Sequence record: MK524177.1
Direction: 5' to 3' (one strand)
Source of the DNA: Escherichia phage PHB10
DNA: 57,228 nt
A program made the translations under genes and the position numbers. A model generated the notes under the pieces. It searched no databases, had not been told where the DNA came from, and saw only the letters and a program-made list of their open reading frames with translations. Below, in pieces: positions 1 to 49,420 of the stretch (position 1 is the first letter of the stretch; every line of letters begins with the position of its first letter).

Positions 1-165
1 CATCGGCCATGACTGTTTTTCAGGGTTGATGCCTTCACCGGCGATCTGTTCAAATCCGTCTCCGAAGGATGCAGAGCGTGTTGCGTAAGTAAGCTCCCCT
101 TCCATTCCCGCCTGAATCTGGGTTCGCCAGGTAAATGTTTCGATCGCCACCTTTCCTCCGGGCAT
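1..165 (-). CDS. minor tail protein M, N-terminal portion (gene runs off the window start; start ATG 165 or GTG 150)
   Basis: Minus-strand translation ...ETFTWRTQIQAGMEGELTYATRSASFGDGFEQIAGEGINPEKQSW resembles the lambda gpM N-terminus as I recall it (TF.W, GM, FGDG); GGAGG 4 nt upstream of GTG 150. Confidence 0.6.
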   Translation of the reverse strand, partial: MPGGKVAIETFTWRTQIQAGMEGELTYATRSASFGDGFEQIAGEGINPEKQSWPM

Positions 166-187
166 AAAAAACCCGCCGAAGCGGGTT
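166..187 (-). terminator. intrinsic terminator after the lipoprotein moron
   Basis: GC stem 170-176/181-187 (acccgcc/ggcgggt) followed on the minus strand by a U-run (plus A-run 166-171). Confidence 0.55.
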
Positions 188-203
188 AAGTAGATACGTC
201 AGC

Positions 204-1082: not shown

Positions 1083-3995
1083 TTATCTTGATTTCGTTGC
1101 ATTCCAGATGAGACCTCCAGGCTGGAGCTGTTTGGCTATACCTGCGCGTACTGACTGATCAATGGTCTGCTTGTAAGCCCGAGAAATGGCGTCACTGTCA
1201 TCAGAAGCCTGCTGCTGAGTGTTCTGGTTATGAACGATCACGGACGTTTGAACGGTTACGCCGCCAGTTGCCGAAGATTGCAGCCCATACATCGGGGCGT
1301 GGCCAACATAGCCGCCGTTTGCATATCCCTGAGCTCCACGCATAAGCGCATAGAGATTACCGACACCCAGCGCACTGGTCGCTTCCTTCGTAAACACAAA
1401 CTCACCACCGTGAACTACGCCTTTCGGTTGGTATTTGCCGCCATCACCGGTGTAACCGCCGCTATCGAATCCCGGCACCAGACCGCCACCAGAGAAACCA
1501 AAAAACGCCCCGATACCCGTTCCACCAAAGGCTGACTTCATTCCATTAACCAGAGCCAGTTGAGTCAGCATCTGGGTTATGCCCTTCAGGAAGGTAGTCA
1601 GGAAGTCTGAGAAGTTAGATTTACCAGTAGTAAAAAAGTCAGTGAGTGTGCTGGCCATCCCGGTGAACGCATTGTTGGTAATCGTCTGCACCTGCGAGTA
1701 AACATTAGTCGCGCTGTCCTCAAATTCAGCCCAACCCTTTTTCGCGCCGGTCAACCAGTCGCCACGCAACCTGTCCTCTGCATCATAGTAATCATTCGCC
1801 GCTTTAAGCTGCTTCTGATAGCCCTCGTCGTCAAGCGTGCCGCCAGAGTTGATCCAGCCAGAGGAAAGCTGGCTCTTTGCCAGCTCACGTTGTGCCTGAA
1901 GGTCACTCATTCCGGCACCGTTCACTAATGCAGCCTGCTTTTCTGCCATCTGCGTGACGTATTTCTGCGAGGTATCCATGCGCTTATTCAGCAGTTCTTG
2001 CGCAGAAATCTGATCACCCAACAGGGCTTTCTGCCGCGCTAACTGCAGCACCTGGTCTTTACTCGCGAGCAGGGATTGCTCCTGCTTTGTCAGAGAGCGA
2101 GATCGGGAGGCCTCCTCCAGCACCTGAAATTTCGCTTCAGTCGTCCACAGATCTTTGCGCTGCTGGCTGATAGTGTCGTTCAGCCCTTTATGCTGCTGCA
2201 GCGCGCGTAACTGTGCCTGAAGCGCCAGCAGCTCGGCCTGGGCAGCGTCCGTGCTGCGATCGCCAGCCGATAAAGAGCCCTGCTTTCCGGTTTTGGTCTT
2301 TTTGCCAAAAGAAGCGACTCCTTCCCGATCCTTCTGGGTGGTTGCGGTACTTATCTTTCTGGTCGTATCGAGGTATTTACCTGCACTGATATCAGCGGCA
2401 TCCCAGTCTTTTTTCAGCTGAGAGACGCTGTCGCCATAAGCGCCGGCCATTTGTTCGTTATAGTCCTGCCATCCCTGCAAAGTATCCGTTTTCGCCCAGT
2501 CAGGAATGAGATTAATCGCAGCCGCGATAGAGGAAGAAATGATCTGGTTCAGCTTCTGGAAAACGATCGCTACGCTGTAATAAATTGCGTTGAATTCCTT
2601 CAGTGTGTTTGATGCCAGCTCAGCAACCCACTGACCGATACTCTGCATAGCCCCAGACGCCCAGCCCTTGATATCCAGCCACAGGCGACCAAACGGTGTC
2701 AGCGAGTCGTAAGCCTGCTCTCCACGTTCTGCCATCGTATCGCCAAACAGGTCCATAGCCTGCGTAACGGCCGCTGTCTGGTCCTTTTGCTTCACCAGCT
2801 CATCAATGTGCTTAAGCTGTGAAACGGTCAGGAAATTATATTGTTCGTTGAGACTCTGCAGCGCTTTAACAGGGTCTTTTTCGATGTCCTTATAGGCTTT
2901 GGTGATGTCCTGCGCCGAGACTATACCGGTCTGAACCGCCAGCGCCGTGGAGCCCGCTGCTTTTTCAAGTTGCTGCTGTGTCAGCGATCCCATGCCAACC
3001 AGTTCAGTCATTAAACTCTGAACGGTTCCTACAGTCGCGCCAGTAGAGGCAGCAATAGACTGGGAGGAAGCCATGATCTGGAGCGCTGACGTGCCGGCAA
3101 TGTTGCCAGTCCTGATAATAGCCTTGTTGATTTCGTCGTAGGCGGTGAAGTAGTCCGAACCCGCTTTTGCAGCAATCAGAACAGCACCGGCCAGGCCACC
3201 AATGGCCACTCGGGCAGGAGTCACCATCGACAACATCGCTTTCAGAGCATTGTTTACACCGCCAAACGAATCGCGCAGCTGGCCGCCCTGCTGAATGGCC
3301 ACCATATAAACCGGCATACCGGACGCCAGTGAGGTCACAATGTCGGTCATTTGCATCGGGAGATAACGCATCGCGTTGCGGTATTGCCCCGCGCTGATCG
3401 CTCCTGACTTCCACGCTTCCTCCTGCTCTTTCAGTCGGGCGATCATCGGTGCAGCACGATCGGACACGCCAAGTTGGGCTGCTTTTAGCTCTAATAGTTC
3501 TGCGCGCGTTTTTCCGATTGCTGTGACCTGCTCTTCCAGCGAATCGATAAAGGTTTTGCCCGCCGCAGCTGCACGCTGTGCTGCCTGTGCCTGTTCAATG
3601 CGAGCCCGCCCCTCTGCGGTCTCACACTCCATGACCTGCGCCAGTTTAGCTCGGGTCGTCTCAAGCACGCTGTTGTAGCGAGTAAAGTCTTCATCCCCTA
3701 CCAGCCCTTTACCGCGAAACTTCGCCAGGCTCTCCTGGATCGTGTCCAGTTCATCCAGCGCCTTGTTTACCGGGCTAATTTTATTCAGCAGGTTCTGCAA
3801 CTCCTGGCGCTGTTGCTTCAGACTTTCGCTGTTTTTCTTTTGGTTATCGATACCGGTGCGGAACGTACTGTTCAGGTCATCAGCTTTACCTGCCGCGGCG
3901 GTCGCGGTTTCCTGAAAGCGATCCAGTGCCTGATTGCCGCGCTCCAGCTCACTGGTATTTACACGCAGGGAAATCGTGGCGATATCGTTACTCAT
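1083..3995 (-). CDS. tail tape measure protein (H-like)
   Basis: 970 aa, coiled-coil-rich, Gly-rich C-terminus; lies between the G/GT chaperone and M as in lambda; start overlaps the GT stop (ATGA). Confidence 0.85.
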
Positions 3996-18746: not shown

Positions 18747-19580
18747 CTATTTTGTTATCTGCTTCAGCTGCGCATCAGCCCAAGCTTCTTCGATATCAAA
18801 CTTGGTGATTAACTGATCGTAAAATGGCTTAACAGACTTCTTCCAGCTATCGAGGCTGATTGTATCTGTTATCTGACACACCGCGGCGTAAGCCTCAGTG
18901 GAAGGGATTCGTTCATACCCCCGCCCGCTGCAGCGCTTGCAATGAGCCAGAACCGGAACGCCCTGCTTTTCTGTAAGAGCTCGGTTAATGGCTTTCCCGC
19001 GTCCATGGCAATCTCTACAGGCACAACTAACGACCTTCTTGCCCTTACACTGAGGGCAGAGAACGCGCGCTATCTCCCTGACCCGTCTGCGCACCTCGTA
19101 CTCAGAAGGTCGAATATCTTCGACGCCCATGTGCAAAGACATCTTCACGAATTTCTTCTCTTTAGCCGGAGTGTGAGACTTCATGCTGAATACATCAGCG
19201 TCAATAAACCCTTCCCCATTGCAGCCATCGCACTGCTTCACGCTGGCGGCGCTGCGGGAATAGTCCTCGAACGCGAAGGTGGCCAACTGATGCATCACCA
19301 GTGGCTTAACCCCGGCATCCAGTTTGCGCAGCGCAGCCACCCGATCGCACTTGAACAGCGCATACTGGGCCAGCAATTCGATCGCCCTCTCCCGGTCATT
19401 GTTGCTGATACCCATCTTCCCGAGAAAAGCGCTGTAACCCAAAGCTGCCCGTTCCTGCGTCATGCCCATAGCGGCCATGATATCCGTCCCGGTTAAAGAG
19501 TCTGACGCCGTTGCACGCGGAGAGTCGCTAATCATCGTCGATTTGGCGAAGTGATATTTAAGGGTGTTTTCAAGATTCAT
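18747..19580 (-). CDS. late-gene antiterminator Q-like protein with four CxxCxGxG zinc-finger repeats, putative
   Basis: Position between rusA and the lysis leader; repeats [32 protein letters not shown]. Confidence 0.55.
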
Positions 19581-19951
19581 GCAGTCTCCAGCTCGGTGAT
19601 GGTGAGTTCTAATTTCCCGCCCTTAACGACAGGCATTTTCACAACGCGATAATCCACAACCTGGCAGTCATCAAGCCAGAATCCCGCCTTGGTTAAAGCG
19701 TCGAATGCAGCTTTCTGCAGGTTATCCAGATCGCGGCGCCGGCGATCAGGCATGTGACATTCAATACGAATTTTGAGTAGTGCAGTCGTCCGGATATTTA
19801 ACCGGGCGCTTCGAATGACACTGGCCACGGCATAGCGGTACGCGACGCCCTCAGCGCTAATGTGAGTTCGCCCGCGGTTGTGCCGGTAATACCGGTTGTT
19901 GCTCGGCGGCCAGGGCAAAGTGATTTGATATGTATTCACTTTCACCCCCAC
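19577..19951 (-). CDS. rusA: Holliday junction resolvase RusA
   Basis: Near-identical motifs to E. coli RusA ([56 protein letters not shown]). Confidence 0.9.
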
Positions 19952-20151
19952 ATCCGGTTTCGCCAGCGGCTATCCGCGCGCGCTGGCGTATTTGAGGTTG
20001 GCAGGAATGCACTTACAGTCCAGGTCACGTAATCCGGATTAAGGCTGCGCTCTACTCGCACGCCGCGCGCTTTGTAACGCTTAACCAGTTCTTCGGCCTG
20101 TTCGGTGCTGCAGTCGGTATGGTGAAACCAAGAATATTTCATGCCCTTCAC
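19942..20151 (-). CDS. hypothetical nin-region protein
   Basis: 69 aa ORF overlapping the rusA start. Confidence 0.35.
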
Positions 20152-20750
20152 CCCGCAAAGCCAAGCAGCTGCGCAGCGACATTTTCGGCCTCATCACGAC
20201 TGCGGAATGAACGGGACAGGACCCAGCGCCAGAGGACATCGAGCGCAGCTTTATAGAGTTGCTGGAACTCGAGCTCGTCCATGTTGGCGAATGAGATGCT
20301 ACGAGGGTGCTTTTTGAGGGTGCCGTCAGGTAGCTGAATAGCATCAAAGTGCCCTGCCTCGACGATCACCCAGGAGCGGTAAGCATCGAAGGATTTGCAC
20401 AGGCTAATGCCATTCGTGACGCGCCGGTAAGCAACCTGCTCAAGATACTGCTCAGCAGCATCGATCAGCGCGCCCTCATTCCCGCCATACGAAGCCAGGA
20501 ACCTGGCGTAGCCGGTGATCAGCTTCCGCTCGTTGCTAGATATAGCCCCGCCGGTTGGTTCCCAGTATTCAAAACCGAGATTGAGAAGCGCGAAAAAGCG
20601 CCGATGAAACGCCGGGTTACGTACCCGCCTGAACTCGGCAACAAGAACATCGCCGAACCGGGTTTTGGATTGCAGAATATCGCTGGTCTCGGGCGTAGCC
20701 GGGATCAGTATTCCTGAGTGGTGTTTGATAAGTTGTAATTCTAGCGCCAT
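20148..20750 (-). CDS. nin-region phage protein (DUF1367-like), function unknown
   Basis: 200 aa ORF; family assignment from memory only. Confidence 0.45.
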   Translation of the reverse strand: MALELQLIKHHSGILIPATPETSDILQSKTRFGDVLVAEFRRVRNPAFHRRFFALLNLGFEYWEPTGGAISSNERKLITGYARFLASYGGNEGALIDAAEQYLEQVAYRRVTNGISLCKSFDAYRSWVIVEAGHFDAIQLPDGTLKKHPRSISFANMDELEFQQLYKAALDVLWRWVLSRSFRSRDEAENVAAQLLGFAG

Positions 20751-21138: not shown

Positions 21139-21363
21139 TTAATAAAACCACTCGTCCGCGCTTTCCCAGGTCTCCTGCAGGATATGTTCGACCTCTTTCT
21201 TGTCACCTCCGAAAACAGTCAAACCATCATTACTGGCACGTTTAATCGTTAGCTGGCAATCATCGAATTGCTTGCTAAGTCTTTTGAGCAGTTCTGACTC
21301 GAGAGCAGGTAAAGCTCCATCAGGAAGTTTCTTCATACGATCAATGGTTAACTCAATTTTCAT
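21139..21363 (-). CDS. DinI-like protein
   Basis: MKIELTIDRMKKLPDGALPALESELLKRL...ILQETWESADEWFY resembles E. coli DinI; start at 21363 with GGAGGG SD. Confidence 0.8.
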   Translation of the reverse strand: MKIELTIDRMKKLPDGALPALESELLKRLSKQFDDCQLTIKRASNDGLTVFGGDKKEVEHILQETWESADEWFY

Positions 21364-21382
21364 TATTCCCTCCGCAACGAAC

Positions 21383-21402
21383 AACTGTATGTATATACAG
21401 TA
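21383..21402 (-). promoter_or_regulatory. LexA (SOS) box overlapping the dinI-like promoter
   Basis: AACTGTATGTATATACAGTA fits CTGT-N8-ACAG; TTGCAA-N17-TATAAA promoter immediately upstream on the minus strand. Confidence 0.75.
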
Positions 21403-21944: not shown

Positions 21945-22901
21945 TCATGTATTTTCAGGACAAAGATGCCGGCAGAACCAGTCAACAACCACATTGATGA
22001 CCTCGGGTTGATACCAGTGATAATCACCATGTTCGGCGCCTTCGATAAGTACGTAGTCCGCTTTATTTCCTTCGTCCAAAAGGCCTTCGTAAAGCGTTGC
22101 GCTCTGCTTTGGTGATACTAATGTATCTTTAGTGCCATGCATTATCAGGAATGGAGGTTTGCGCCCTCTAATATGTCCTATGGGGCTTGCATTTATCGCT
22201 TTCTCAGGTGTAGAAGCGATGGATGCGCCTGGAAAGTTCCTGAAAGCAACACCATTAATTAGCAGTGATTCCGTGACCGCAGGAGACTGATGCACTTTTT
22301 GACGGTGATCAGGAAAACCATCACCTATGTTACGCAGGTCTGATATTCCGTAAAGCGTGGCCACAGCCTGCACATCAGCGGACTGGCTGAGAAAATCGCC
22401 GTGTTCGAATGATTTATCGCCATTTGTGGTACCCAGCATCTGAGCCAGCCATCCTCCAGCAGAATCGCCAAATACACCAATTCGTGAGGGGTCAATACCA
22501 TAATCGGGGGCATGTTGACGAAGGTATCTTACTGCTGCTTTAGCATCTACTATTGGTGCAGGGAAGGTATCCGGGATTGTCCTATATTCTGCCGCAGCAA
22601 CAACAAAGCCAGCCTCCGCCAGGGCCATACGCATTTCCATAAATTTGTTGTGCTCAGCCGTCATAAATCCTCCTCCAGGAAAATAGATGATGGCTGGTTT
22701 CAAAAAACTGGTACGAGGCACCAGAAAAGACATGTGTAAATGCCTGACCGAGCGAGTGCTTTTAACTGTCTCATAAACAACATCGCTGATGTTATCTATC
22801 GGGTTACGCGTCATAGCGACCTGAATAATTTCTGCTCCATGAACATAACCGGGAAGATTGTAATGATCAGAAGATACTGCGCCAGTTTGTTTAGAAATCA
22901 T
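21945..22901 (-). CDS. alpha/beta hydrolase (esterase/lipase-type)
   Basis: GDSAGG nucleophile elbow, HGTKD, oxyanion region FPGGGF. Confidence 0.8.
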   Translation of the reverse strand: MISKQTGAVSSDHYNLPGYVHGAEIIQVAMTRNPIDNISDVVYETVKSTRSVRHLHMSFLVPRTSFLKPAIIYFPGGGFMTAEHNKFMEMRMALAEAGFVVAAAEYRTIPDTFPAPIVDAKAAVRYLRQHAPDYGIDPSRIGVFGDSAGGWLAQMLGTTNGDKSFEHGDFLSQSADVQAVATLYGISDLRNIGDGFPDHRQKVHQSPAVTESLLINGVAFRNFPGASIASTPEKAINASPIGHIRGRKPPFLIMHGTKDTLVSPKQSATLYEGLLDEGNKADYVLIEGAEHGDYHWYQPEVINVVVDWFCRHLCPENT

Positions 22902-23090
22902 AAAAAGCTTCCATTGAAAACAGATCTCCGAAGAATCGAATCCTCTATAACTATATCATCCCGTACGAGTCTAGTGAGATCGGTTCTTTCCCTGTATAAC
23001 TAATATAAATATTCATTCTCAAGACTTATCCATGCAAGTACAGTATTTGTGACAAATCCTGGGAAGTGATGTTTTTTCATTCAGAAACAG

Positions 23091-23525
23091 TTACGTCATT
23101 GGATTGCTGTTATTTTTGTTATATTTCAACCTGTCTTCACGAAATCGATCCGCATTTTCGACGATCCAGGTCCATAGCGGAATCATACGAACAAGCAGTT
23201 CCATACCAGTATCAGACAGCTCGTATTCGACTCGTGGTGGAACTTCATTGAAATCATGGCGGATAACAAGGCCGTCCCGCTCAAGTTGTCGTAATGTGCG
23301 CGTCAGCATGCGCTGAGTCACTCCGTGCATACGCCTACCAATCTCAGCATGGCGTAGTCTTCCATACACGCCAAGAGTGTTGATAACACCCAATGACCAG
23401 CGACTTCCTGCATGGGTCAGCACTTCCCGCCGTAAGCCATCATCATCGTCTCTCAGCCCCTTACAAACATCCTGCGAATACTGAAGAATCTCGTCCCGAT
23501 CCATTTCACTGACTCCCGGTATCAT
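23091..23525 (-). CDS. HxlR-family winged-helix transcriptional regulator
   Basis: Motif WSLGVINTLGVYGRLRHAEIGRRMHGVTQRMLTRTLRQLERDGLV; divergent from the NmrA-like gene; start probably 23525. Confidence 0.75.
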   Translation of the reverse strand: MIPGVSEMDRDEILQYSQDVCKGLRDDDDGLRREVLTHAGSRWSLGVINTLGVYGRLRHAEIGRRMHGVTQRMLTRTLRQLERDGLVIRHDFNEVPPRVEYELSDTGMELLVRMIPLWTWIVENADRFREDRLKYNKNNSNPMT

Positions 23526-23594
23526 ACATGTACCTTCTTTTTTAGCCTGTTGTGAATTGCTAGAGTGGCGCAACAATTCATGTAAGGCCAGATT

Positions 23595-24545
23595 ATGAAC
23601 AAAATTGATCTTAACACTACGTCTGAAAATATCCTCGTGCTCGGTGCCGGTGAGCTGGGCCTCCCCGTTCTGCGAAATCTTGCCCTTCGGGCAAAAGATT
23701 TGAAGGGAACAAAAATCAGCGTGCTGTTGCGCGAAAGTACCTTAACTTCAGATGAACCTGGAAAAAAATTAGTTCTCAAGGAAATCAGAAACCTCGGTAT
23801 TAATATTGTCACAGGTGATCTCGTCATGAGTTCTGTCGACGATTTGGCCAGCCTCTTTGCGCAATTTGACACAGTCGTTGGCTGCACGGGGTACGCGGCT
23901 GGAATAAATACACCGATGAAACTGGCGCAGGCGGCTCTGCAGGCGCGGATTCCACGATATTTTCCATGGCAGTTTGGTGCCGATTTTGATGCCATCGGAC
24001 GCGGCAGTCCACAAGACATCTTCGACGCGCAGATTGACGTGCGTGATTTACTACGCAGCCAGCATGAAACCGAGTGGGTCATCATTTCGACCGGCATCTT
24101 CATGAGCTATTTGTTCGAACCAGACTTCGGTGTGGTCGATCTACAGAACGATACTGTTCACGCACTCGGCAGTATTGACAACACCATGACGCTGACAACA
24201 CCGGATGATATCGGGATGCTAACGGCAGCGATTGTATTTAACACTCCTCGCATTCGGAACGAAATTGTATATATCGCCGGTGATACACTGACCTACGCAG
24301 ATGTGGCAGATAAGCTGCAATCAGCGCTTGGCCGTCCTTTCAGCTGCACGGAATGGAGCGAACAACATCTGATGGATAAACTGGCGCTCAACCCGCAAGA
24401 CATGATGTCTAAGTATCGTGCCGTTTTTGCACAGGGGCGGGGAGTTGCTTGGGATAAAAAGCAGACATTCAATGAACGCCATAACATTCCGGTTACCGAT
24501 GTGGCAGCCTGGATTAATGCAAACCTGATCCCAGGCAGCTCATGA
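23595..24545 (+). CDS. NmrA-family NAD(P)-binding oxidoreductase
   Basis: N-terminal Rossmann motif VLGAGELG; typical HxlR/NmrA divergent pair. Confidence 0.75.
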   Translation: MNKIDLNTTSENILVLGAGELGLPVLRNLALRAKDLKGTKISVLLRESTLTSDEPGKKLVLKEIRNLGINIVTGDLVMSSVDDLASLFAQFDTVVGCTGYAAGINTPMKLAQAALQARIPRYFPWQFGADFDAIGRGSPQDIFDAQIDVRDLLRSQHETEWVIISTGIFMSYLFEPDFGVVDLQNDTVHALGSIDNTMTLTTPDDIGMLTAAIVFNTPRIRNEIVYIAGDTLTYADVADKLQSALGRPFSCTEWSEQHLMDKLALNPQDMMSKYRAVFAQGRGVAWDKKQTFNERHNIPVTDVAAWINANLIPGSS

Positions 24546-24652
24546 TAGACGTATTTAGGCTGCTGTAATAAATACCAGAGTCTTTCTCCTGCCTACCCGA
24601 ATAGGTGATGAGAAAGACTCTGTTCCCCCTGTTGGCACTGATAGTAAAGCGG

Positions 24653-25513
24653 TTAAGCTGTGTGAGCTGAAAACCGGCTCTCCGGTAAACCGGGGAATAC
24701 GGCTGATTTCGCTCTTAGCAGCGCTCCATCATGCCTTGACGGCACAGAAAGACCCACGCTGGCACTAGTACAATACAGCGTTGTGAATGCTTCTCCCGCG
24801 AGTGTCGGGCAAGTGCTCTGAATTCCTGGGGAGGGCAGGATACGATCCGTCGTTCCGTCCGGACGATAACGTACAACACGGCTTCCTCCCCATTCGGCAT
24901 TCCAGATATAGCCCATTGCGTCCACGCAGGAGCCGTCAGGCGCCCCCTTTCCCTCTGTTGCAGTGAACACACGCTGGTTATTCATAGTGGGATAATCACA
25001 GCACAATATACGGCCCTGCATCGAGTCACAGTAATACATCGTGCTGCCGTCCGGACTGAAGCAGATGCTGTTCGGGATGGACACCTCAGGCAGGGGTAGC
25101 GTTTCAATGCTGAGTGTCGCTGCATTTAGCCTGTGAAATTTTCCGATGACTTTCGCGGGGTACCCGTCATCCATGGTCCCGAAGACGAAATTACCCTCAC
25201 GGTCGCACCGACCATCCCCTGTCCGTGTTCCCGGCCCTCCCGGTGACCCCACTACCGGTGTAAAGATACCCGTATTCAGATCGCAGAAGGCGAATCTGGA
25301 CGCCAGCCCCATCAGTAAAACGTCAGAATTTTCAGTAAGTGCAAACGATCCGAGGCGCTCAGGCAGCGACCAGCGCATCACAACACCGGTATCTTCTTCA
25401 AGGGCAAGCAGCTCGCTGCCTTCAATGTCAGTCCAATAAATCCTGCGAGTCCTCTCGCACCAGATTGGGCACTCTCCAAGCAAATTTCTGGTATCAGCAG
25501 CCACTGAAAACAT
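24653..25513 (-). CDS. SMP-30/gluconolactonase/LRE-family protein
   Basis: Beta-propeller-like repeats (GECPIW, DxxG motifs); start MFSVAADT at 25513 with GGGAGA SD. Confidence 0.75.
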   Translation of the reverse strand: MFSVAADTRNLLGECPIWCERTRRIYWTDIEGSELLALEEDTGVVMRWSLPERLGSFALTENSDVLLMGLASRFAFCDLNTGIFTPVVGSPGGPGTRTGDGRCDREGNFVFGTMDDGYPAKVIGKFHRLNAATLSIETLPLPEVSIPNSICFSPDGSTMYYCDSMQGRILCCDYPTMNNQRVFTATEGKGAPDGSCVDAMGYIWNAEWGGSRVVRYRPDGTTDRILPSPGIQSTCPTLAGEAFTTLYCTSASVGLSVPSRHDGALLRAKSAVFPGLPESRFSAHTA

Positions 25514-25611
25514 GTTATTTCTCCCGCATATAAAAGTTTCGCATCGCCTGAACAATAGCTTACGGCCATCTGCACTATGGCAGAGCGCCGTAAGGAGCAT
25601 TCCCCACCCTG

Positions 25612-26085
25612 TCAGGGCAAAAAACGCGCTGAAAGTTTGTCACCAAAAAGCATGATGGCGAGTCCTGCCAGCATGACCAGCATGCCCCCCAGTTTGAGCA
25701 GCGAAACCGGTCGCCTAACAGCACCCAGCAGACCGAAATGGTCAATCATTTGCGACGAGAGTAACTGCCCAACGATTGCCAGCCCTAGCAGAGCTGAAAA
25801 ACCGATTTTCGGTGCCAGCACTACGTAGCTGAATAACGCACAGGCACCGATCAGACCGCCCGCCAGACTCCACGCAGGCTGCGAAGGAATAGCAGCGAGA
25901 GAGGTAAATAACCCTCCACGAAGCAGCGAGTAAATCCCGAGACTCAACGCCCCGGCCGTAAATGAGAAGAATGCGGCGGTAACCGGGTCCCCCCCGAGTC
26001 CTTTTGCAAGCTGACTGTTCAGGGTCGTCTGCAGAGTAATACCAAGACCCGCTGCAAAAGCTATTACGTAATAAATCGCGCTCAT
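25612..26085 (-). CDS. small DMT-superfamily membrane transporter, putative
   Basis: 157 aa, four to five hydrophobic helices. Confidence 0.65.
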   Translation of the reverse strand: MSAIYYVIAFAAGLGITLQTTLNSQLAKGLGGDPVTAAFFSFTAGALSLGIYSLLRGGLFTSLAAIPSQPAWSLAGGLIGACALFSYVVLAPKIGFSALLGLAIVGQLLSSQMIDHFGLLGAVRRPVSLLKLGGMLVMLAGLAIMLFGDKLSARFLP

Positions 26086-26099
26086 GCTGTTTTTCCCTG

Positions 26100-27497
26100 T
26101 CAGTTTGCCTGTACCAGCGGCAGAAATTTCTCCGCAAAGATGTCCGGCTCATACCCGGCGGCAGCAAAAAGGTGTTCGCGTGATTCATCGATGGCAGCAC
26201 GAAGACGCTCGCTGTCCACGCCCAGAACTTTACCGTTCTTCTTGACGATGCGCCCGCCAATCATAACGGTATCGATGTTGCTGCGTTCAGTTGCATGCAC
26301 CACCGTCCCGAAGGCATTCCCGTTCGGGTAGAGATTGAGATCAGCAGCATTAATCAGGATCAGGTCGGCCTGTTTTCCTGGCGTCAGGCTACCCACTTTA
26401 TCCTGTAGCCCGGCACAGGTCGCACCATCGACGGTCGCCGACTTCAGCAGTTGCGCTGCCGGGAGCGTTGTTATTGAATGCCCTGAATCACAGCAGTGCT
26501 GCTTATGCATACCCATTACTCGCTGCAGATAGAACGCCACGCGCATTTCCATAAACATATCTGTGCTGTAAGACGTTTCGTTATCCACGCTCAGGCCAGG
26601 ATTGATGCCATGGCGCTGTGCGGCCTCAATGGCAAACATCCCGCTTTCAATGCCATAGTGCGAATCTGAGCGCGGACAGACGTTCACCCGTACGCCGGCT
26701 TCACGCAGGATTTCCCAGCCCTCATCAGGTAGTGCGGTACAGTGGTTGAAGATATTGTCCGGGCCAAGCAGACCCTGCCGATGCAGAGATTCAAGCTCGG
26801 AGGCCATCTCAGCACCAAAGAATTCGGTCACGATCGGCAACCCCAGCCTGCGCGCTTCAGCCCATAATTCTGGCTCCAGCTGAGCCATAACCCCCAAAGT
26901 CACAAGACCCTCTGGGTTATCCCTGAAATACTTTTCCTGCAGACGCTGCCAGTTACCTGGCCAATGTGCACGATCCCATTCACCCGCAACCGGTGCGCCG
27001 GAAGCATGAATGGCGCGAATGCCGCTATCAAGCAGAGCCTCGACTGCAGCGTCGGAATGCGCTGCGGTACGGCTGTTATGCGAGTTATCGATCATCGTAG
27101 TGATACCCGCGTCAATCGCGCCCAGCGCCGTCAGCAGGTTGCCGACATAGATATCTTCAGGACGGTAATATTTAGCGAACGAAAAGTGCGTGGCGTTGCT
27201 GTAGTCGTCCAGACAGGTGGCGTTGGGGTTGATGCGGCGTAGCTGACCTTCCCAGGCGTGACGATGAGAATCAACCATCCCAGGCATGGCAATCATATTT
27301 TTGGCATCAATAACACGAGCACCTGGCGCGTCAAGGTTCTGACCAACGGCGGTAATGATTGAGCCGTTGATGAGAATGTCACCGCGCTCAATATTACCGA
27401 CGCTATCGTCCATACTCAGTATGGTTGCGCCGCGAATCAGCGTTACCGGCGGGTTTTCCGTCTGTTTCTTAACAATATTTCTGTTGTAATTGGTCAT
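26100..27497 (-). CDS. amidohydrolase-family metal-dependent hydrolase (deaminase-like)
   Basis: 465 aa with metal-binding motif MPGMVDSHRHAWEGQ and conserved downstream His/Asp residues. Confidence 0.8.
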   Translation of the reverse strand: MTNYNRNIVKKQTENPPVTLIRGATILSMDDSVGNIERGDILINGSIITAVGQNLDAPGARVIDAKNMIAMPGMVDSHRHAWEGQLRRINPNATCLDDYSNATHFSFAKYYRPEDIYVGNLLTALGAIDAGITTMIDNSHNSRTAAHSDAAVEALLDSGIRAIHASGAPVAGEWDRAHWPGNWQRLQEKYFRDNPEGLVTLGVMAQLEPELWAEARRLGLPIVTEFFGAEMASELESLHRQGLLGPDNIFNHCTALPDEGWEILREAGVRVNVCPRSDSHYGIESGMFAIEAAQRHGINPGLSVDNETSYSTDMFMEMRVAFYLQRVMGMHKQHCCDSGHSITTLPAAQLLKSATVDGATCAGLQDKVGSLTPGKQADLILINAADLNLYPNGNAFGTVVHATERSNIDTVMIGGRIVKKNGKVLGVDSERLRAAIDESREHLFAAAGYEPDIFAEKFLPLVQAN

Positions 27498-27639
27498 TGT
27501 AATCGTCTCTTTCAGATTAAGAAGGAAAACGATACGCCTCCCGATTAAGATGAAAAAGATGACTAACGTGTTTTCATAATTCAGAATTAACGAATAATAA
27601 TGGTTAACAACTTTACACGATATTCAGGAGAGCAGTCAG

Positions 27640-28527
27640 GTGGATCGCATTCAGGCTATGCAGGTTTTTTTAAGGGTGGCTGAAGCCGGAAGCTTTGTCA
27701 GGGCAGCGGAAACACTGTCCCTGCCTTCCTCTACTGTTACCAGCACCATCAAAAACTTGGAGAAATATCTGCAGGTGCGTCTGCTCAACCGGACCACAAG
27801 GAGGGTCAGCCTTACGTCTGAAGGTCTGCAATACCTGGCGCAATGCAGGGAAATCCTTGCCTTAATTGAACATACTGAAGCCAGTCTGGCTGATTCGAAC
27901 AAGCGCCCCCGGGGCCGCTTACGCGTTGATATGCCCGGCGGTATAGCCCATTTCATCGTTATGCCAAATCTGAAAGAATTCTACAGCCGGTATCCTGATA
28001 TTTACCTGATGATCGGTGTCAGTGACCGGCAAGTTGATCTGGTTCAGGAGGGTGTGGATTGCGTGATCAGAACCGGAGATTTGCTTAGCTCAACACTTGT
28101 TGCCCGTCCGCTTGGGCAGTTCCGCTGGATCACCTGCGCCTCTCCCGAATATCTCAGAAAGTATGGTATTCCACAGTCACCTCAGGATTTATCTCATCAC
28201 AGGGCTATTCATTATTTTTCAGGGCAAAACCGACGTACAGACGAATTGCGTTTTGTACATGGAACAGAAACGCTGTCTGTATCCGTCAGCGGGCAGGCAG
28301 CCGTCAATGAGACGGGACTCTATATAAAAATGTGCCTCGAAGGGTTCGGACTGGCGCAGCTTGCTGAAAACGTTGTAGCAGAACACCTGCAAAAAGGAAC
28401 ACTGGTTGAAGTCCTGGCCGACTGGCAGCCGTCGTCTGTTCCTGTCACTTTGCTTTATCCCCATCAGCGTTTTCTTTCACCCGCCGTACGCGCATTTGCA
28501 GACTGGGTAGATGAAATCTTTAGTTGA
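27640..28527 (+). CDS. LysR-family transcriptional regulator
   Basis: N-terminal HTH (MQVFLRVAEAGSFVRAAETLSLPSSTVTSTIKNLEKYL) and LysR substrate-binding domain. Confidence 0.85.
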   Translation: MDRIQAMQVFLRVAEAGSFVRAAETLSLPSSTVTSTIKNLEKYLQVRLLNRTTRRVSLTSEGLQYLAQCREILALIEHTEASLADSNKRPRGRLRVDMPGGIAHFIVMPNLKEFYSRYPDIYLMIGVSDRQVDLVQEGVDCVIRTGDLLSSTLVARPLGQFRWITCASPEYLRKYGIPQSPQDLSHHRAIHYFSGQNRRTDELRFVHGTETLSVSVSGQAAVNETGLYIKMCLEGFGLAQLAENVVAEHLQKGTLVEVLADWQPSSVPVTLLYPHQRFLSPAVRAFADWVDEIFS

Positions 28528-28725
28528 TATGTCTGTTACAGCCACCCGAGCACATTAAAAGTCAGCAGTATTCAGGATACCTGGCAGGACGGCAGGCTTT
28601 GCTTCGCGGATGCGTCCATTCCGGAACGGCGGCTTCACAGGTAAAGAGCTGTACCCAAAAATTCAATTCTCCGTTTTAAAAGTAACGCCTCCGGCTAAGA
28701 ACCCCAGCCGCATCCGGGGCCTCTT

Positions 28726-29619
28726 TTAACTGAAATGTCTGAGTAAAATATCTTCAAGGATGTGAAAAACGGTCCTGATGCGTTGCGGTACAAGGGTCTG
28801 ATAGGGCCGGTAAAGATAAAGCTGCCAGGTTTCCAGTTTTAGTTCCGGTAAAACATTCACCAGCCTGCCGTCTTCGAGATATTCCCTGCAGGCCAGATTA
28901 CTCGACTGGATCACTACTTTACCGGCTAATGCAGCCTGAATCTCAGACTGGGAGTCGGTAGTAATAAATTCAAGATGTCGTGGTACAAAAGTATCGACGC
29001 CATCGAGCATATATTCGAATACTTTGCCGGTATCAGGATTCAACAGGCCACTGAAAGGATAGCGCTGGCGCAGATCGTCGAAATTTTCCGGCGCACCCAG
29101 CCGCTCAATGAGCCCGGGAGATGCCATCAGCGCGTGATGAACAAGCGTAATGGGCCTGATAATAAAGTTCGGATTTGGCTCCCGCTCAATACGGATCCCC
29201 ATGTCAATGCGGTTCTGAACAGTATCCAGCTTCATCATGTCCAGCCGCCAGTCTATAAACAGCTCAGGATAAGGACGAAGCGCATTCAGAAGCTCATAGA
29301 GTACCTGTTCGTGCCCGGGAAAGCGAAACAGGGTGATCCTCACAATCCCCTTCATCTCATTGTCATCTCTGGCCGTTTGAAACAGGGCCTCTGAATCCTC
29401 AAGCAAACGAAGGGCCCCCGGCAGGAAGAGCTCACCAAAGCTGGTCAGCACAATAGATCGGGTATTCCGCTTAAAAAGTGGCTCGCCGAGCTGATTTTCC
29501 AGTTCAGCAATAGTGCGCGTCACCACTGAAGGAGAAATGGCCAGTCTGACCGCTGCTTCACGAAAATTCATCGTTTCTGCAGCGGCAACAAAAAATTTCA
29601 GCGCATCTAGTTTATTCAT
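28726..29619 (-). CDS. LysR-family transcriptional regulator
   Basis: HTH LDALKFFVAAAETMNFREAAVRLAISPSVVTRTIAELE; divergent from the AKR operon; start probably 29619. Confidence 0.85.
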   Translation of the reverse strand: MNKLDALKFFVAAAETMNFREAAVRLAISPSVVTRTIAELENQLGEPLFKRNTRSIVLTSFGELFLPGALRLLEDSEALFQTARDDNEMKGIVRITLFRFPGHEQVLYELLNALRPYPELFIDWRLDMMKLDTVQNRIDMGIRIEREPNPNFIIRPITLVHHALMASPGLIERLGAPENFDDLRQRYPFSGLLNPDTGKVFEYMLDGVDTFVPRHLEFITTDSQSEIQAALAGKVVIQSSNLACREYLEDGRLVNVLPELKLETWQLYLYRPYQTLVPQRIRTVFHILEDILLRHFS

Positions 29620-29736
29620 GATTGTTGTTTTTTTAGCAATTCTGACTTTCAAAATTAACAATTTTTATGCAACAAATCCAGCCATATACTTAACCGCTCT
29701 AAAACATCACTGAGTTAAGAAAAGTCAGGATTCACT

Positions 29737-30702
<966 letters not shown>

Positions 30703-31481: not shown

Positions 31482-32168
31482 CTATGCCCTCCCATCAGCC
31501 TTCATTCGCTCATATTTGGCTTTCAAAAGCTCCGCTGGAGTTGGCCCTTTCGATGCCACTGGCGCTGCCAGCGCCCTACGAACAGGCGGAATTGGCTTCC
31601 CGGACAGCACTCGCTTCTCCCACATACCCAGAATCTCGCCAGCCTCGCGCTCGAGCTCTTTCTGACACAACTGGCCATCGGTTCCGCGGCGACGCAGTTC
31701 GAGGCAGATGTGGTAAAAAACCGGCTTTGGCCAGGGATACTGCTCGCTGCTCGGGTACCGGAACACCAGCTTGCGCCACTTCCAGTATTCAGCCATCACG
31801 TCAGCGGTGGTGATCCCCAGCACACAGCGCCCTTCCCTGCACCACTTGATGAACTGGCCTGGCGAAGGCAGGAATGGACGCTCCTGACGACGCACCATGC
31901 GCATTCCCGCTTCAACCTGCTCCAGAGTGGTGATCCCGTTTTCTTTGAACGCCAGCACCCACTGACGGCGAATCTCGTTCACGTCTTCCTGGCTGCGGTT
32001 TACCAGGCTTGCCGGAAACGCAGCCGCCAGCTGTACGAATAGCCCGTTGATAATCTGGGCCACCTGCTGCGTTTGCTCGCGCTCGGTGTACTGCTCAGGC
32101 AGGTTATGCGCCACACGGCGAGCCTGTTCCCGGTCAAAATTGCGAATGCTCTCGGCAAGATTTTTCAT
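31482..32168 (-). CDS. replication protein P (helicase loader)
   Basis: Strong similarity to lambda P as I recall it (NFDREQ.RR.A.N.PEQY, QVAQIINGxF, RRQWVLAF.ENGITT, RPFLPSPGQF). Confidence 0.85.
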   Translation of the reverse strand: MKNLAESIRNFDREQARRVAHNLPEQYTEREQTQQVAQIINGLFVQLAAAFPASLVNRSQEDVNEIRRQWVLAFKENGITTLEQVEAGMRMVRRQERPFLPSPGQFIKWCREGRCVLGITTADVMAEYWKWRKLVFRYPSSEQYPWPKPVFYHICLELRRRGTDGQLCQKELEREAGEILGMWEKRVLSGKPIPPVRRALAAPVASKGPTPAELLKAKYERMKADGRA

Positions 32169-33115
32169 TCCAGCACCCCGTCAATCCAGTCGGTGTTATG
32201 CAGGTCAATACCGCCCCGTGATGGCTTTACCGTTCCGGTAGCGCGTAGCCGTTTGGTAGTGAGCTGATCCCACTGCTTGCGCAGACTCGAGGGGCTCAGG
32301 ATGTTGTCTTTCCAAAACTCGTCCCGGTTGGCCCACTGGAACAGGTCACAGATTTCGTAGTGAGTACGCTTGTCCTGGACGCGCATCAGCCTGATGGTGT
32401 TTGCCCATTCAGCCCAGTTGGGCTCGGATAGCGATGCGTTGACGGTGAGAAGCCTGTCGTAAATCCAGCGGGCGGCCTTGAGGTCGTCAGCGGATCCCCA
32501 TGATTTACCTGCCGGGGTGTATATCCCGTCGGCAGCTTCAGGATGGCGAGAGAGAAACTTTTGAGTTTTCTGGTTTCGGGATTCGTCAGAATTCCGAGAC
32601 GAGGATCTTTTAATATTGTTCTTGTTATAGTCTTGGGTGTCTACCGTTTCCGGGAAGGTTTTTCCCGTTTTCGGCAACACTTTTCCCGATTTCGGGAAGA
32701 CTTTTCCCGTTTTCGGTTTGTCTAAAATCCAGGCGGAAAGGTCAGTATTTATACCGACCGTTTTCATCACCCCCTGCTTCTGACTGAAGATAATTTTGCG
32801 TTCAGCGAGTGATTTGAGCGCATCCGAAACGTGGGAATCACTCAGCCCTGTAAGCTCGGCGATCACCGTGTTCGTAACGCGGTCCTGCTTCTTGTTCCAG
32901 CCGTAGGTAAGCCAGATCACCGCCTCAAAACACTGCCACTCCCGGCCTGACATTCTCAGACGAGGCTTAAGCTGTTGGATCTCGTTAGCGACCTTGGTAT
33001 ACCCGTTCGACAGGTCGGCCATACGACCTCCCGGTTGTTCGGTTCTTTGGGGGAAATTGATAATTTCAGCTGTGTTTGACATACTTAGCTCCGCAATTAC
33101 ACTCCGTTTTTGCAC
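32165..33115 (-). CDS. replication initiator O-like protein
   Basis: Upstream of P with overlapping stop/start; contains the ori iterons, which encode the repeated PKTGK peptide. Confidence 0.8.
   Translation of the reverse strand: MQKRSVIAELSMSNTAEIINFPQRTEQPGGRMADLSNGYTKVANEIQQLKPRLRMSGREWQCFEAVIWLTYGWNKKQDRVTNTVIAELTGLSDSHVSDALKSLAERKIIFSQKQGVMKTVGINTDLSAWILDKPKTGKVFPKSGKVLPKTGKTFPETVDTQDYNKNNIKRSSSRNSDESRNQKTQKFLSRHPEAADGIYTPAGKSWGSADDLKAARWIYDRLLTVNASLSEPNWAEWANTIRLMRVQDKRTHYEICDLFQWANRDEFWKDNILSPSSLRKQWDQLTTKRLRATGTVKPSRGGIDLHNTDWIDGVLE
32628..32711. repeat. replication origin iterons inside the O gene
   Basis: Three 21-bp repeats TTTTCCCG(T/A)TTTCGG at 32649, 32670, 32691 plus a partial inverted copy at 32634; AT-rich stretch at 32590-32627. 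Confidence 0.7.
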
Positions 33116-33166: not shown

Positions 33167-33718
33167 TCACATTGCCCCCAACATGGTTGTGACCATCGCC
33201 AGCAGCGGCGCCGTAAGGTCCGGATCGATCCTGAACATTTCGAAAATCCCCTCGCCTAACTCCTTCAGTTTTTCCTTCTTCGGTGCATCGAGCATCAGAG
33301 CTTGCTTCGCCTCACTTACCTCTTTTTCCAGCCGGGCCATTCGGTAAGCAAACGAGTCGTTCTTTACGACACGGTCGCGGTATCGAAGCGGCAATACAGA
33401 CATGATCGCGGGCACCAGCTGTTCGACGTTCTTTCGGTACGATACGGAGTCTTCTTTGTTGTCGAGCCAGCGGAACAGCTTCACGTTCCAGACATCGGCC
33501 TGGCCTGAGAAATCCACGCCATCAAGTTGAAGTTCTTCCGCCGCTTCTTGGATTTGAAGCGCAACAGCTACGCGCCCTTCTGCCGCTGCCCACGCCCGGA
33601 CTGCAGAACAAATATCGCGATGATCAATATCCTGCTCTGCCGATTTGCTTTGATGACACGGGAATATCATTGGATTAGAGCAAGCTCTGCTACTCTGTTG
33701 AAATGAAACAGTTTGCAT
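33167..33718 (-). CDS. hypothetical regulatory protein in the cII position (YdaT-like?)
   Basis: 183 aa ORF between the cro-like gene and O. Confidence 0.35.
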   Translation of the reverse strand: MQTVSFQQSSRACSNPMIFPCHQSKSAEQDIDHRDICSAVRAWAAAEGRVAVALQIQEAAEELQLDGVDFSGQADVWNVKLFRWLDNKEDSVSYRKNVEQLVPAIMSVLPLRYRDRVVKNDSFAYRMARLEKEVSEAKQALMLDAPKKEKLKELGEGIFEMFRIDPDLTAPLLAMVTTMLGAM

Positions 33719-36418: not shown

Positions 36419-39400
36419 ATGGAATTTTTCTATGTAGTGAAGGCTACGCAGAAATCTGGCAAAGAAGACGCAGTGATTTGGTTCACTGCTAAATCAGAAG
36501 CCCGTGCCAACCTGCAGCTCGATGTCGAGCTGGAAGATGCAGGTATTGAAACCGGCCGCGGTAAGGATTACTCAAAACCGGTTCGCACCGATTTCCCTGT
36601 TTACAACGATCTGCCTGAAGAAAGCACCGTGGATTACATCTGGTGCAAACGCTACGAACTGCAGGACGATGGACGCACCTGGCTGCCAAAGGCTGGTGCT
36701 GAGTCGACTGGTGACATGGACAGCTCTGCCGCACCGGAGACGACCGTTAATGTCGAAACTACCGTCGAAAGTGTCCCGCTTGAAAACCGCACTCCAGCGG
36801 TCCGTTTTGCCGTCCATCTGACCAGCGACAAATACCAGTCACACATCACTAAAGAGCAGCAGCTGGCTGCCAGCGAAATGTCACTGGATGAAGGCAACAC
36901 CTATCTCCAGAATCTGCTACTGGCGAAGAACGACACCCCTGAAGTTGCCGAACTCAGCCTGAACGCTGAGTGGAAACTGGTACAGGTGATTAAACAGGTA
37001 TTCGCGCTAGATGAAGAGCACGAAGTAAAGCTACTTGCTGCTTTCATGGCCGACTGGTTGAGAGTTGATGCCGGCGCCCGTAATGAGGTAGTGAGAGAGT
37101 GGAAGAACGGAAAGCTTACTCTGCTCAAATCAGAAAGAACCAGCGACGCCGGGGTTGAAACTGATCAGCATATCGCTATTGATGACGGTATCCAGATCGG
37201 CGAGCACGACGATGAAAACACCCGTTATCCAGTGTGCAGAATGCCCTTCCGCAAGCAACTTCTTTCACAGTTCACCGCCGACGAACTGCGCCACCACTTA
37301 ACCCGCGAAGAATACGAAGGTATCAGCGCGCTGGAAATGGACACAGACAACAGCTATGTCCAGAACCTGCTTCTGGCGGCAGAAAACTGCGAAGAGGTTA
37401 AGGGTTACGATACCAAAGACCTGTGGCGCTACACCGACGCCATTCGCAAGGTGTTCAGCCAGGAGAAGCGTCACGAACTCGCTTTGGTTCTCCGATTCAC
37501 CAGAATCTGGGCTGCGACTGATTACATTGACCGCGGCACCCTGGTGCGCGAATGGGTTGAGGGTAATCGCATTTCTGAAGTAGGTTCTCCTGCACCTTTA
37601 GAACCAGAAAAACCAGAAACAACCGAATCCTATAAACGCGCTGTTGCCCAGAACATGGCGAACTTGAGCATTGAGATCGCGATTGCTCAGCTTTACCCAG
37701 ATGCAGTACCGGGGCAAATCAACCGTACGCAACTCCTGGCCGCCAAAGAACTCGCTGACAAAAAAGATGAGTCGCACGCCAAGGCGCTCAAGGTTCTTAG
37801 TAAAACCACCGACATCCTCGACTACGACGCCAACAGTATTTTTGGAGTTACCCGCGCTATTTCATGGTCTGGAGAAGAAAGCACAACCAAACTGCGTAGC
37901 CAGGTGCGTGAGTGGTTCACGGCGAACGGCATCTATGAAAGCGGTGAGCGCTCTAAAGGATATCCAGAATGGAACGAAGACTCCCGCGAGGTTCGTCATT
38001 CCACAGTGGAAGAACCAAGTACTCCAAGCCAGACAAAGGTCGCAAGCCTTGGAAGCGGCGTGTTCTCCATCGATGGCCTGATGGATGGAAATACCGAACC
38101 GGTCATCAATACCAACTCAAATGAAGTCGAAAAAACGGAAAAAACAGCGGAGACCACCAGCGATGTGCAGATGGAAACGGCTAAGCCAGAAAAAGACGAA
38201 GATGTTGGTTCGGTACCACCGAGCGAAAGCACTGATGCAGCTAATTCGCAGACAGATTCCGTAACGTTGGAAGAACAGCAAGCAGAACCGGTAATTGAGT
38301 ACCCAGCTTATTTCGAGCCTGGCCGCTACGAAGGCCTACCGAATGACGTTTATCACGCAGCAAACGGTATTAGCTCAACCCAGGTGAAAGATGCCCGGGT
38401 CAGCCTGATGTATTTCAACGCACGCCATGTGGCTAAAACTATCCCGCGCACAGCATCCAAAGTTCTGGACATGGGGAACCTGGTGCACGCCCTTGCACTG
38501 CAACCGGAAAACCTCGATGCAGAGTTCAGCGTGGAGCCTGAGATCCCGGACGGTGCTTTCACCACAACCGCAACTCTGCGCGAGTTCATCGACGAGTACA
38601 ACGCTAGCCTGCCGGCGCTGCTAAGCGCTGACGAGATTAAAGCGTTGCTTGAAGAACATAACGCATCCCTTACAGCTCCAGTGCCGCTTGGCGCGAGCCT
38701 GGAAGAAACGGCTCAAAGCTATATGGCTCTCCCTGCTGAGTACCAGCGTATTGAAGAAGGCCAGAAGCAAACGGCAACGGCAATGAAGGCGTGCATCAAA
38801 GAGTACAACGCTACCCTGCCCGTGCCGGTTAAAACCAGCGGCAGCCGTGATGCGTTATTTGAGCAATTAGCAATCATCAATCCAGACCTGGTGGCGCAAG
38901 AAGCGCAGAAACCGACACCGCTGAAAGTGTCAGGCAGCAAAGCAGACATGATCCAGGCTGTTAAGTCGGTTAAGCCCGATGCCATATTCGCCGACGAACT
39001 GCTGGATGCCTGGCGCGACAACCCTGGCGAAAAGATTCTGGTTACCCGCCAGCAGCTGGCCACAGCGCGGGCAATTCAGTCTGCACTCCTGGCGCACCCT
39101 ACAGCTGGCATGCTGCTGACACATCCAAGCCGCGCTGTTGAAGTGAGTTACTTCGGCTTTGACGACGAAACAGGTTTAGAAGTGCGTGTACGCCCTGATC
39201 TCGAGATTGAACTGGACGGCGTGCGAATTGGCGCCGACCTGAAAACCATCAGTATGTGGAATGTGAAGCAAGAAAGCCTTCGCGCCAGGCTGCACAGGGA
39301 AATCATAGACCGTGACTATCACCTCAGCGCGGCTATGTATTGCGAGACCGCGGCGCTGGACCAGTTCTTCTGGATTTTCGTCAACAAAGACGAGAACTAC

Positions 39401-39592: not shown

Positions 39593-39601
39593 GGGGGATT
39601 T

Positions 39602-41032: not shown

Positions 41033-41245
41033 ATGTCGCAGGTAATATTTAACGAAGAATGGGTTGTTGGCGCAAGGCTCACAGAAAAAACAGGCCTGAC
41101 CGAACGACAGATTGAGAAGTATCGCCAGGGCTGTTGGGTGGAAGGTGTCCATTTTAAACGGGTTTCTCCTTCCGGAGAAAAAACCTTGCGTGGCACAACC
41201 TGGTACAACTATCCGAGAATTAATCAGTTAATAAGGGATGCGTAA
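41033..41245 (+). CDS. xis: excisionase
   Basis: 70 aa basic protein immediately upstream of and overlapping int. Confidence 0.7.
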
Positions 41246-42740: not shown

Positions 42741-42811
42741 TCTTTAGCCAGTGCGCCACCCTTATTCTCCCTGCCCTATACTTTAAGTCTGACATCTGGT
42801 TCGAGGTTTCT

Positions 42812-47617: not shown

Positions 47618-47632
47618 TGCACACACCTCAAA

Positions 47633-49406: not shown

Positions 49407-49420
49407 ATTTTCTCCAGGCA

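Follow-up and report, generated by a model that had tools for sequence, protein, structure and literature searches.

The probable late-gene antiterminator of Escherichia phage PHB10 is a Q-lambda family protein with four CxxCxG motifs

The window analysed here, i.e., the whole stretch of 57,228 nucleotides under study, comes from Escherichia phage PHB10 (record MK524177.1). On its minus strand, NinB (20148..20750), a small open reading frame (ORF), RusA (19577..19951), the Q gene (18747..19580), a gap of 1.9 kb, holin, endolysin, Rz and terminase follow one another in this order. The Q gene, which is the subject of this work, starts with ATG, ends with TAG and encodes a protein of 277 residues. 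Its ORF is full length, with GGAG as ribosome-binding site, and an ATGA overlap joins its start to the stop codon of the upstream RusA gene. A location between nin-region genes and the lysis cassette is that of the genes of the Q-lambda family, and the gene order bears out the initial annotation, made from the sequence alone, which had placed this gene at the late-antiterminator (Q) position. The protein is very probably the late-gene antiterminator of the phage, a true member of the Q-lambda family that most likely works as Q-lambda does. Its segments, compared with those of Q-lambda, and its motifs are as follows (QBE, Q-binding element).

19449..19580, minus strand: residues 1-44, counterpart of the torus-forming ("nozzle") segment of Q-lambda, with 68% identity to lambda 1-44
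19242..19448, minus strand: residues 45-113, N-terminal half of the helical body, aligned to lambda 45-113
19026..19241, minus strand: residues 114-185, insertion of 72 residues relative to Q-lambda, with motif 1, a hairpin (residues 125-174) and motif 2
19209..19232, minus strand: motif 1, CDGCNGEG, residues 117-124
19035..19058, minus strand: motif 2, CPQCKGKK, residues 175-182
18915..19025, minus strand: residues 186-222, canonical zinc-ribbon arm with motifs 3 and 4, aligned to lambda 116-152
18996..19019, minus strand: motif 3, CRDCHGRG, residues 188-195
18918..18941, minus strand: motif 4, CKRCSGRG, residues 214-221
18750..18914, minus strand: residues 223-277, C-terminal half of the body with the helix-turn-helix that, by homology, would read the QBE, aligned to lambda 153-206

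The four CxxCxG motifs, which start at residues 117, 175, 188 and 214, had been described as DnaJ-like repeats in the initial annotation and they are real: none of 20,000 composition-preserving shuffles of the protein reaches four of them. Three are perfect CxxCxGxG motifs and the remaining one (CPQCKGKK) is CxxCxGxK. They had been assigned to the protein's C-terminal half. Their number stands, but they span residues 117-221, i.e., the middle of the protein. In alignments of divergent homologues, down to about 30% identity, the eight motif cysteines are invariant or nearly so, including the four of the insertion (Cys117, 120, 175 and 178).

The protein matches the Q-lambda family of Pfam (PF03589) with 153.3 bits (E-value 2e-45), for a gathering score of 26.7, and PHROG 127 ("anti-termination protein Q-like") over its full length (E-value 3e-103). 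In a phmmer search of PDB, Q-lambda chains were the only matches (7UBM and 7UBN with an E-value of 9.3e-51, also 4MO1 and 7UBJ). Residues 1-113 align with lambda 1-113 and residues 186-276 with lambda 116-206; given the gap between lambda positions 113 and 116, the protein corresponds to Q-lambda plus 72 inserted residues. Cys188, 191, 214 and 217 are aligned with lambda Cys118, 121, 144 and 147. In the same way, lambda G39 and E134 are kept as G39 and E204; both are functionally mapped residues of Q-lambda, and E134 contacts sigma and DNA (PMC9388147).

The AlphaFold model consists of a four-helix body including a helix-turn-helix and of a four-cysteine zinc-ribbon arm, as found in the Q-lambda family. 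Its best structural match is the engaged, torus-folded Q-lambda chain of the engaged loading complex (7UBN_Q), on which it superposes with a template-modelling (TM) score of 0.81. The N-terminal half of the body is made of helices 46-55, 60-80 and 92-107 and its C-terminal half of helices 227-237 and 243-276; in Q-lambda, the helix-turn-helix is formed by body helices H4 and H5. Residues 1-44 of Q-lambda refold with NusA into a torus (“nozzle”) at the RNA-exit channel (PMC9388147), and by homology residues 1-44 of the PHB10 protein could play the same role. In Q-lambda, the arm (residues 114-152) is in contact with QBE positions 11-13, with sigma region 4 by its tip, and with the zinc-binding domain of beta'. 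Residues 110-112, 117 and 122-126 touch this domain at the hinge between body and arm, where the arm turns by about 75 degrees when DNA is bound (PMC9388147).

Immediately beyond the Q gene, the window carries a cassette that resembles the late control region of lambda. Its promoter and QBE were assigned by homology.

18697..18724, minus strand: putative PR'-like late promoter, collinear with lambda PR'
18724..18719, minus strand: putative -35 element, TTTACT
18718..18703, minus strand: 16-bp spacer with the QBE-position box TTTCCCGAATCTGTGG
18702..18697, minus strand: putative -10 element, TAATTT, with TG before it
18682..18697, minus strand: putative sigma-dependent pause element, with -35-like TTGCTC (18697..18692), one base, -10-like AACGAT (18690..18685), then GGG
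18635..18666, minus strand: tR'-like intrinsic terminator, with a 12-bp stem as folded, a 6-nt loop and UUUUU

The predicted +1 lies near 18690. The pause element reads CAACGATGGG, where TTGCTC and one base are followed by AACGATGGGTTA, identical to the sigma-dependent pause element of lambda. Checked against the lambda record, CAACGATGGGTTA is identical, and the one-base spacing to the -35-like hexamer is also the same. The segment 18625..18690 folds with -27.8 kcal/mol (z-score -4.2), a stability that none of 200 shuffles attains, and the PR' RNA would end at about 55 nt when Q is absent. A PR' with a QBE, a pause element and a terminator are thus all found at the sequence level.

This cassette recurs, to various extents, after the long-form Q genes of six other phages or prophages. 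The box, the pause element and the terminator recur after the Q genes of mEp237 (whose box has 15 of the 16 bases of that of PHB10), Evi and two E. coli prophages. The pause element and the terminator are shared by Gifsy-2 and 2H10, whose boxes are different, and the box is also kept downstream of the Q gene of phiEt88. The initial transcribed region of phiEt88, ES18 and ST104 differs from that of PHB10 and presumably resembles the late region of P22. Hairpins equivalent to the terminator occur in all loci compared. No Rfam family for a short PR' RNA is matched at 18635..18690. A search for a CII-dependent antisense promoter like lambda PaQ (TTGC-N6-TTGC) found none inside Q; the window holds two matches, for 4.25 expected.

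The two motifs that Q-lambda lacks are widespread in its family. An exhaustive HMMER search over 1.84 billion representative sequences found 244 family members (E-value up to 0.001). Among the 38 representatives that span the region after clustering at 50% identity, 31-32 have four motifs and six have two, motif 3 being often CxCxGxG instead of CxxCxGxG. Since about 80% of the family diversity is of the four-motif type, lambda is the reduced form: as far as these sequences go, the four-motif architecture is the family norm, and lambda and P22 represent a reduced form of it. The initial annotation had considered the architecture unusual for a Q, a view supported neither by this distribution nor by the two motifs of lambda Q itself. 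Furthermore, annotated four-motif Q genes are found in phages mEp237, phiEt88, Evi, ES18, ST104, Gifsy-2 and 2H10. The “late gene regulator Q” of mEp237 is 79% identical to PHB10 Q, and Enterobacter homologues, named “antitermination protein (Q)”, are 88-95% identical. This type of protein is therefore already annotated in databases. Besides its four-motif Q, Evi (LR597642.1) has a second gene of 1050 nt, annotated “Phage antitermination protein Q” and located upstream of rusA (1..317 of the compared stretch).

In the AlphaFold model, the insertion is made of strands 125-136 and 163-174, with helices 139-150 and 158-161 at the tip (predicted local distance difference test score, pLDDT, 83-92). 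Residues 108-226 modelled alone (pLDDT 93.8) show the same chain order as the full-length model: motif 1, strand 125-136, helices, strand 163-174, motif 2, motif 3, strand 196-198, helix 200-206, strand 211-213 and motif 4. Motifs 1 and 2 directly flank strands 125-136 and 163-174, and motifs 3 and 4 flank strands 196-198 and 211-213. Motifs that bracket an antiparallel hairpin come to lie close to each other at its base, which makes 1 with 2 and 3 with 4 the natural pairing. The model thus suggests that motifs 1 and 2 most likely bind a second zinc ion, the protein then having two zinc ribbons in tandem. The pattern of absence agrees with tandem pairing, as in the short forms of lambda type, motifs 1 and 2 are missing jointly whereas 3 and 4 are kept.

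Variation along the protein is greatest in the hairpin that motifs 1 and 2 bracket. This hairpin shares 55% identity with that of mEp237 and 46% with that of an E. coli prophage allele, whereas the canonical arm (residues 186-222) shares 67-72% with these two proteins (67% with mEp237) and the N-terminal and body regions 80-95% (83-95% with mEp237). Across the family, the loop that joins motif 1 to motif 2 is 6 to 55 residues long (median near 40), the one that joins motif 3 to motif 4 16 to 20. At least two alleles of the hairpin tip exist among close relatives. Compared with the closest E. coli prophage allele, codons 1-113 show 18 synonymous and 2 non-synonymous differences, a ratio indicating purifying selection; the corresponding numbers are 6 and 6 for the hairpin, 5 and 8 for the canonical arm.

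The eight cysteines are fixed while the length and the tip of the hairpin vary, which points to the zinc knot at the hinge between body and arm as the seat of the conserved role of the extra module. This is put forward as a tentative hypothesis. Such a knot may stiffen the arm or set its angle, or may provide a larger docking surface for the beta' zinc-binding domain; in that case, the hairpin tip would be a decoration, either tolerated or adaptive. It is possible, if somewhat doubtful, that Q-lambda is a stripped-down minority of its family, that most members have at the hinge a second arm with an invariant zinc knot and a hairpin hypervariable in length and sequence, and that this arm takes part, in the loading or loaded complex, in a contact missing in lambda. 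Partners of this arm may be the beta' zinc-binding domain, NusA, sigma or upstream DNA, and the fast change of the tip could reflect adaptation to variants of the host polymerase or escape from anti-Q factors. No discussion of a second zinc module was found in the literature on the Q-lambda family and its zinc-finger homologues.

Two other ideas about the insertion were discarded. The two stretches of the protein that match PF03589 might suggest an arm duplication, but the one-armed lambda Q also gives two stretches. The hairpin could also have been a determinant of QBE specificity. This looks unlikely, since the boxes of the window and of mEp237 differ at one of 16 bases while the hairpin is where the two proteins differ most. 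No extra conserved DNA was seen upstream of the -35 element in the compared loci.

By homology to Q-lambda, a mechanism can be proposed in which every step is transposed from lambda. RNA polymerase would initiate at the PR'-like promoter, about 25 bp beyond the Q stop codon, and would pause near +16, where sigma-70 region 2 would re-bind the -10-like AACGAT. Q would bind the box located between -35 and -10, with contacts made by the body helix-turn-helix and by the part of the arm that is close to the zinc; sigma region 4, once repositioned, and the zinc-binding domain of beta' would be contacted as well. The Q-modified polymerase would then pass the terminator at 18666..18635 and later ones, allowing transcription of the lysis and virion genes.

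Other readings of the gene have to be weighed. It was suggested in the initial annotation that it may belong to a distinct Q family or encode a different regulator. Three families of Q are currently distinguished: Q-lambda (PF03589), Q21 (PF06530) and Q82 (PF06323) (PMC9388147). A fourth, distinct kind of Q, or another regulator that merely occupies the Q position, could be evoked by the four CxxCxGxG motifs, the 72-residue segment that textbook Q-lambda does not have, and the weak match to DnaJ_CXXCXGXG. However, on either side of the insertion the protein is homologous to Q-lambda over its full extent, PF03589 is matched far above threshold, the predicted fold is that of Q-lambda, and the adjoining PR', pause element and terminator are lambda-like. 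Moreover, lambda Q has the same type of motif and the same weak DnaJ match. Neither PF06530 nor PF06323 was matched in the Pfam scan at an E-value up to 1. This reading, which we regard as very improbable, is already refuted by the profile and structure comparisons. A protein of DnaJ type, in which a chaperone-like, cysteine-rich zinc-finger module would serve folding or disulfide chemistry and not transcription, is more remote still and close to negligible. PF00684 (DnaJ_CXXCXGXG) scores 29.9 bits in the Pfam scan, under its gathering score of 32.7; for comparison, it scores 23.1 bits with lambda Q and 33.1 bits with the Q of 2H10, and most close homologues carry a precomputed match. No J domain was found in the Pfam scan, and the full DnaJ architecture is absent, TIGR02349 (DnaJ_bact) reaching 14.4 bits for a cut-off of 377.2. 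The DnaJ-type repeats of the initial annotation are therefore acceptable at the level of motifs, with PF00684 matches in homologues, but the protein itself stays below the threshold of the domain. The profile search that had been proposed as a check, against the Q families and the DnaJ cysteine-rich domain, leads to the Q-lambda family, far above threshold, and not to a non-regulatory one. Judging from the sequences, the DnaJ-like signature is a motif-level resemblance and a trait of the whole Q-lambda family.

The last alternative accepts an intact Q sequence that is not the late switch of this phage, the gene being in decay or insulated from early transcription by cargo. A block of about 9 kb (21945..30702), lying between the replication genes O/P (31482..33115) and DinI/NinB/RusA/Q, contains non-phage-looking genes in mixed orientation: a BD-FAE alpha/beta hydrolase, an NmrA-like protein, an SMP-30 gluconolactonase, an amidohydrolase, two LysR regulators and an aldo/keto reductase. 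This cargo is unusual for a nin region and may be an assembly artefact. The separation of O/P from nin/Q by these seven genes, together with the fact that no promoter was identified for Q, would fit such a silent Q. Against it stand the full-length ORF with its ribosome-binding site, the scarcity of non-synonymous differences in the first 113 codons, and a PR' cassette, lysis genes and virion genes that all look intact. We consider it improbable, though less so than the two preceding readings. Several points nevertheless weigh against a working lambda-type Q with a second zinc arm. The position of the cargo between the replication genes and nin/Q raises the question of how Q gets transcribed in PHB10. 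The late promoter was missed by a generic sigma-70 scan, its -10 element TAATTT fitting the consensus at three of six bases, so that it is assigned by homology to lambda PR' alone. The AlphaFold models from which the tandem sites are deduced carry no zinc, the small net charge of the hairpin (about +2; mean +1.75) neither supports nor excludes a contact with nucleic acids, such as that of a basic finger, and no experimental work on any four-motif Q was found in the literature.

A functional antiterminator of the Q-lambda family fits with the region that lies downstream, in which the following features were found on the path of late transcription.

18171..18157, minus strand: terminator-like hairpin (terminator scan)
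17910..17889, minus strand: terminator-like hairpin (terminator scan)
17805..17881, minus strand: tRNA-Arg(tct), found by ARAGORN
17258..17463, minus strand: STnc100-like small RNA (Rfam, 74.1 bits for a gathering score of 47)
17288..17269, minus strand: terminator-like hairpin (terminator scan)
16921..16902, minus strand: terminator-like hairpin (terminator scan)
15504..16857, minus strand: lysis cassette, by homology the first late genes placed under Q control
16555..16857, minus strand: holin (PHROG, E-value 1.5e-24)
16019..16558, minus strand: endolysin (PHROG, E-value 1.9e-61)
15504..16040, minus strand: Rz spanin (PHROG, E-value 3.9e-54)

The distance of about 1.9 kb to the lysis genes implies a need for processive antitermination, in keeping with a lambda-type Q. 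The terminator scan found ten terminators, for 3.6 expected, and at least four further terminator-like hairpins, within 16892..18171, would have to be passed by the Q-modified polymerase before it reaches the lysis genes. The terminator at 16895..16920, chosen in the initial annotation as the target for an antitermination assay, exists (stem 16921..16902), but it is the last of several, and the first one after the Q-dependent promoter is that at 18666..18635.

Other observations concern the same interval. A sub-threshold isrI-like match (17524..17621) overlaps an ORF of 63 codons (17525..17716, PHROG 1856), and the segment 17561..18038 shares 82.5% identity with Gifsy-1 DNA annotated as hypothetical protein and tRNA-Arg. 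Between the Q terminator and the lysis genes, the plus strand encodes a predicted membrane protein of 94 residues (18269..18553), for which neither PHROG nor Pfam gives a match. It is probably a moron, so located that late transcripts made under Q would be antisense to it. An Ivy (inhibitor of vertebrate lysozyme) homologue, likely a lysogenic-conversion gene, lies on the minus strand between the Rz and small terminase genes (14588..15082).

The window as a whole is an apparently complete, circularly permuted genome of a temperate phage, arranged as in the vegetative state. The tail genes run past its low end (tape measure gene, 1083..3995, and the tail gene next to it) and resume from its high end, where J (50789..54238) and a tail fibre gene (47859..49451) are found. 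J and the integrase gene (41238..42485) face each other across a presumed att region near 42.6 kb. The early region resembles that of Rac (RecE/RecT, 36419..40687; YdaT, 33167..33718), and a DinI-like gene (21139..21384, minus strand) sits where the cargo block meets the nin region. A UmuD-like S24 peptidase (47198..47695) and a UmuC-like Y-family polymerase (45927..47195), both on the minus strand, adjoin the tail-fibre genes, and an SRAP (YedK-like) gene (42701..43486, plus strand) follows the integrase. The UmuD/UmuC-like pair and the SRAP gene represent SOS or DNA-damage-tolerance cargo in the counterpart of the lambda b region.

For annotation, this is a routine outcome: a lambda-type Q, accompanied by a PR', a pause element and a terminator of its own, is very probably the late switch, and the Q function does not call for any other gene. 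However, the mechanistic and structural work on the family all rests on lambda Q, which does not have the module found in about four-fifths of the family sequence diversity. Whether loading proceeds family-wide as in lambda could be seen from the structure of a four-motif Q or from its analysis by deletion.

When known systems are compared, Q21, Q82 and the AntQ of Gifsy-1 have the same genomic position and regulatory task as PHB10 Q (PMC9388147), whereas the families of Q21 (PF06530) and Q82 (PF06323) share no sequence match with it at an E-value up to 1. Gifsy-1 AntQ, whose toxicity has been studied, was considered as a source of data on long-form Qs and rejected, since it is annotated as similar to the Q of phage 82 and its data do not transfer.

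The cysteine-rich domain of DnaJ/Hsp40 (PF00684) and anti-TRAP share the CxxCxGxG zinc knuckle with PHB10 Q, with weak matches in sequence and structure. In DnaJ, the zinc sites are nested, motif 1 pairing with motif 4 and motif 2 with motif 3, whereas those of PHB10 Q would lie side by side (1 with 2 and 3 with 4). Unlike DnaJ, PHB10 Q has neither a J domain nor a chaperone context.

Lambda Q is homologous over its whole length, with 68% identity in residues 1-44 and 51% in the zinc-ribbon arm. Both proteins share the helix-turn-helix body, the four arm cysteines, the gene position, the PR' layout and the CAACGATGGGTTA pause element. Lambda Q has two motifs of its own (CRDCHGTG and CGRCKGVG), which form its zinc ribbon and have motifs 3 and 4 of PHB10 as counterparts. 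PHB10 Q differs by its insertion of 72 residues between lambda 113 and 116, which brings two extra CxxCxG motifs and a long hairpin. The QBE-position box is TTTCCCGAATCTGTGG in PHB10 and TATTGAATAAAATTGGG in lambda. The terminator is also much closer in PHB10, where the RNA would be about 55 nt long, whereas in lambda the hairpin is found about 190 nt beyond the aligned start.

The closest systems are the other long-form Qs, i.e., those of mEp237, Enterobacter, phiEt88, Evi, ES18 (gp73), ST104 (gp23), Gifsy-2 (STM1022) and 2H10. They have the same four-motif architecture and the same neighbours as in PHB10 (RusA or NinG upstream, lysis genes downstream), with the same or a similar PR' cassette, and they differ from PHB10 Q mainly in the length of the hairpin between motifs 1 and 2 and in its tip.
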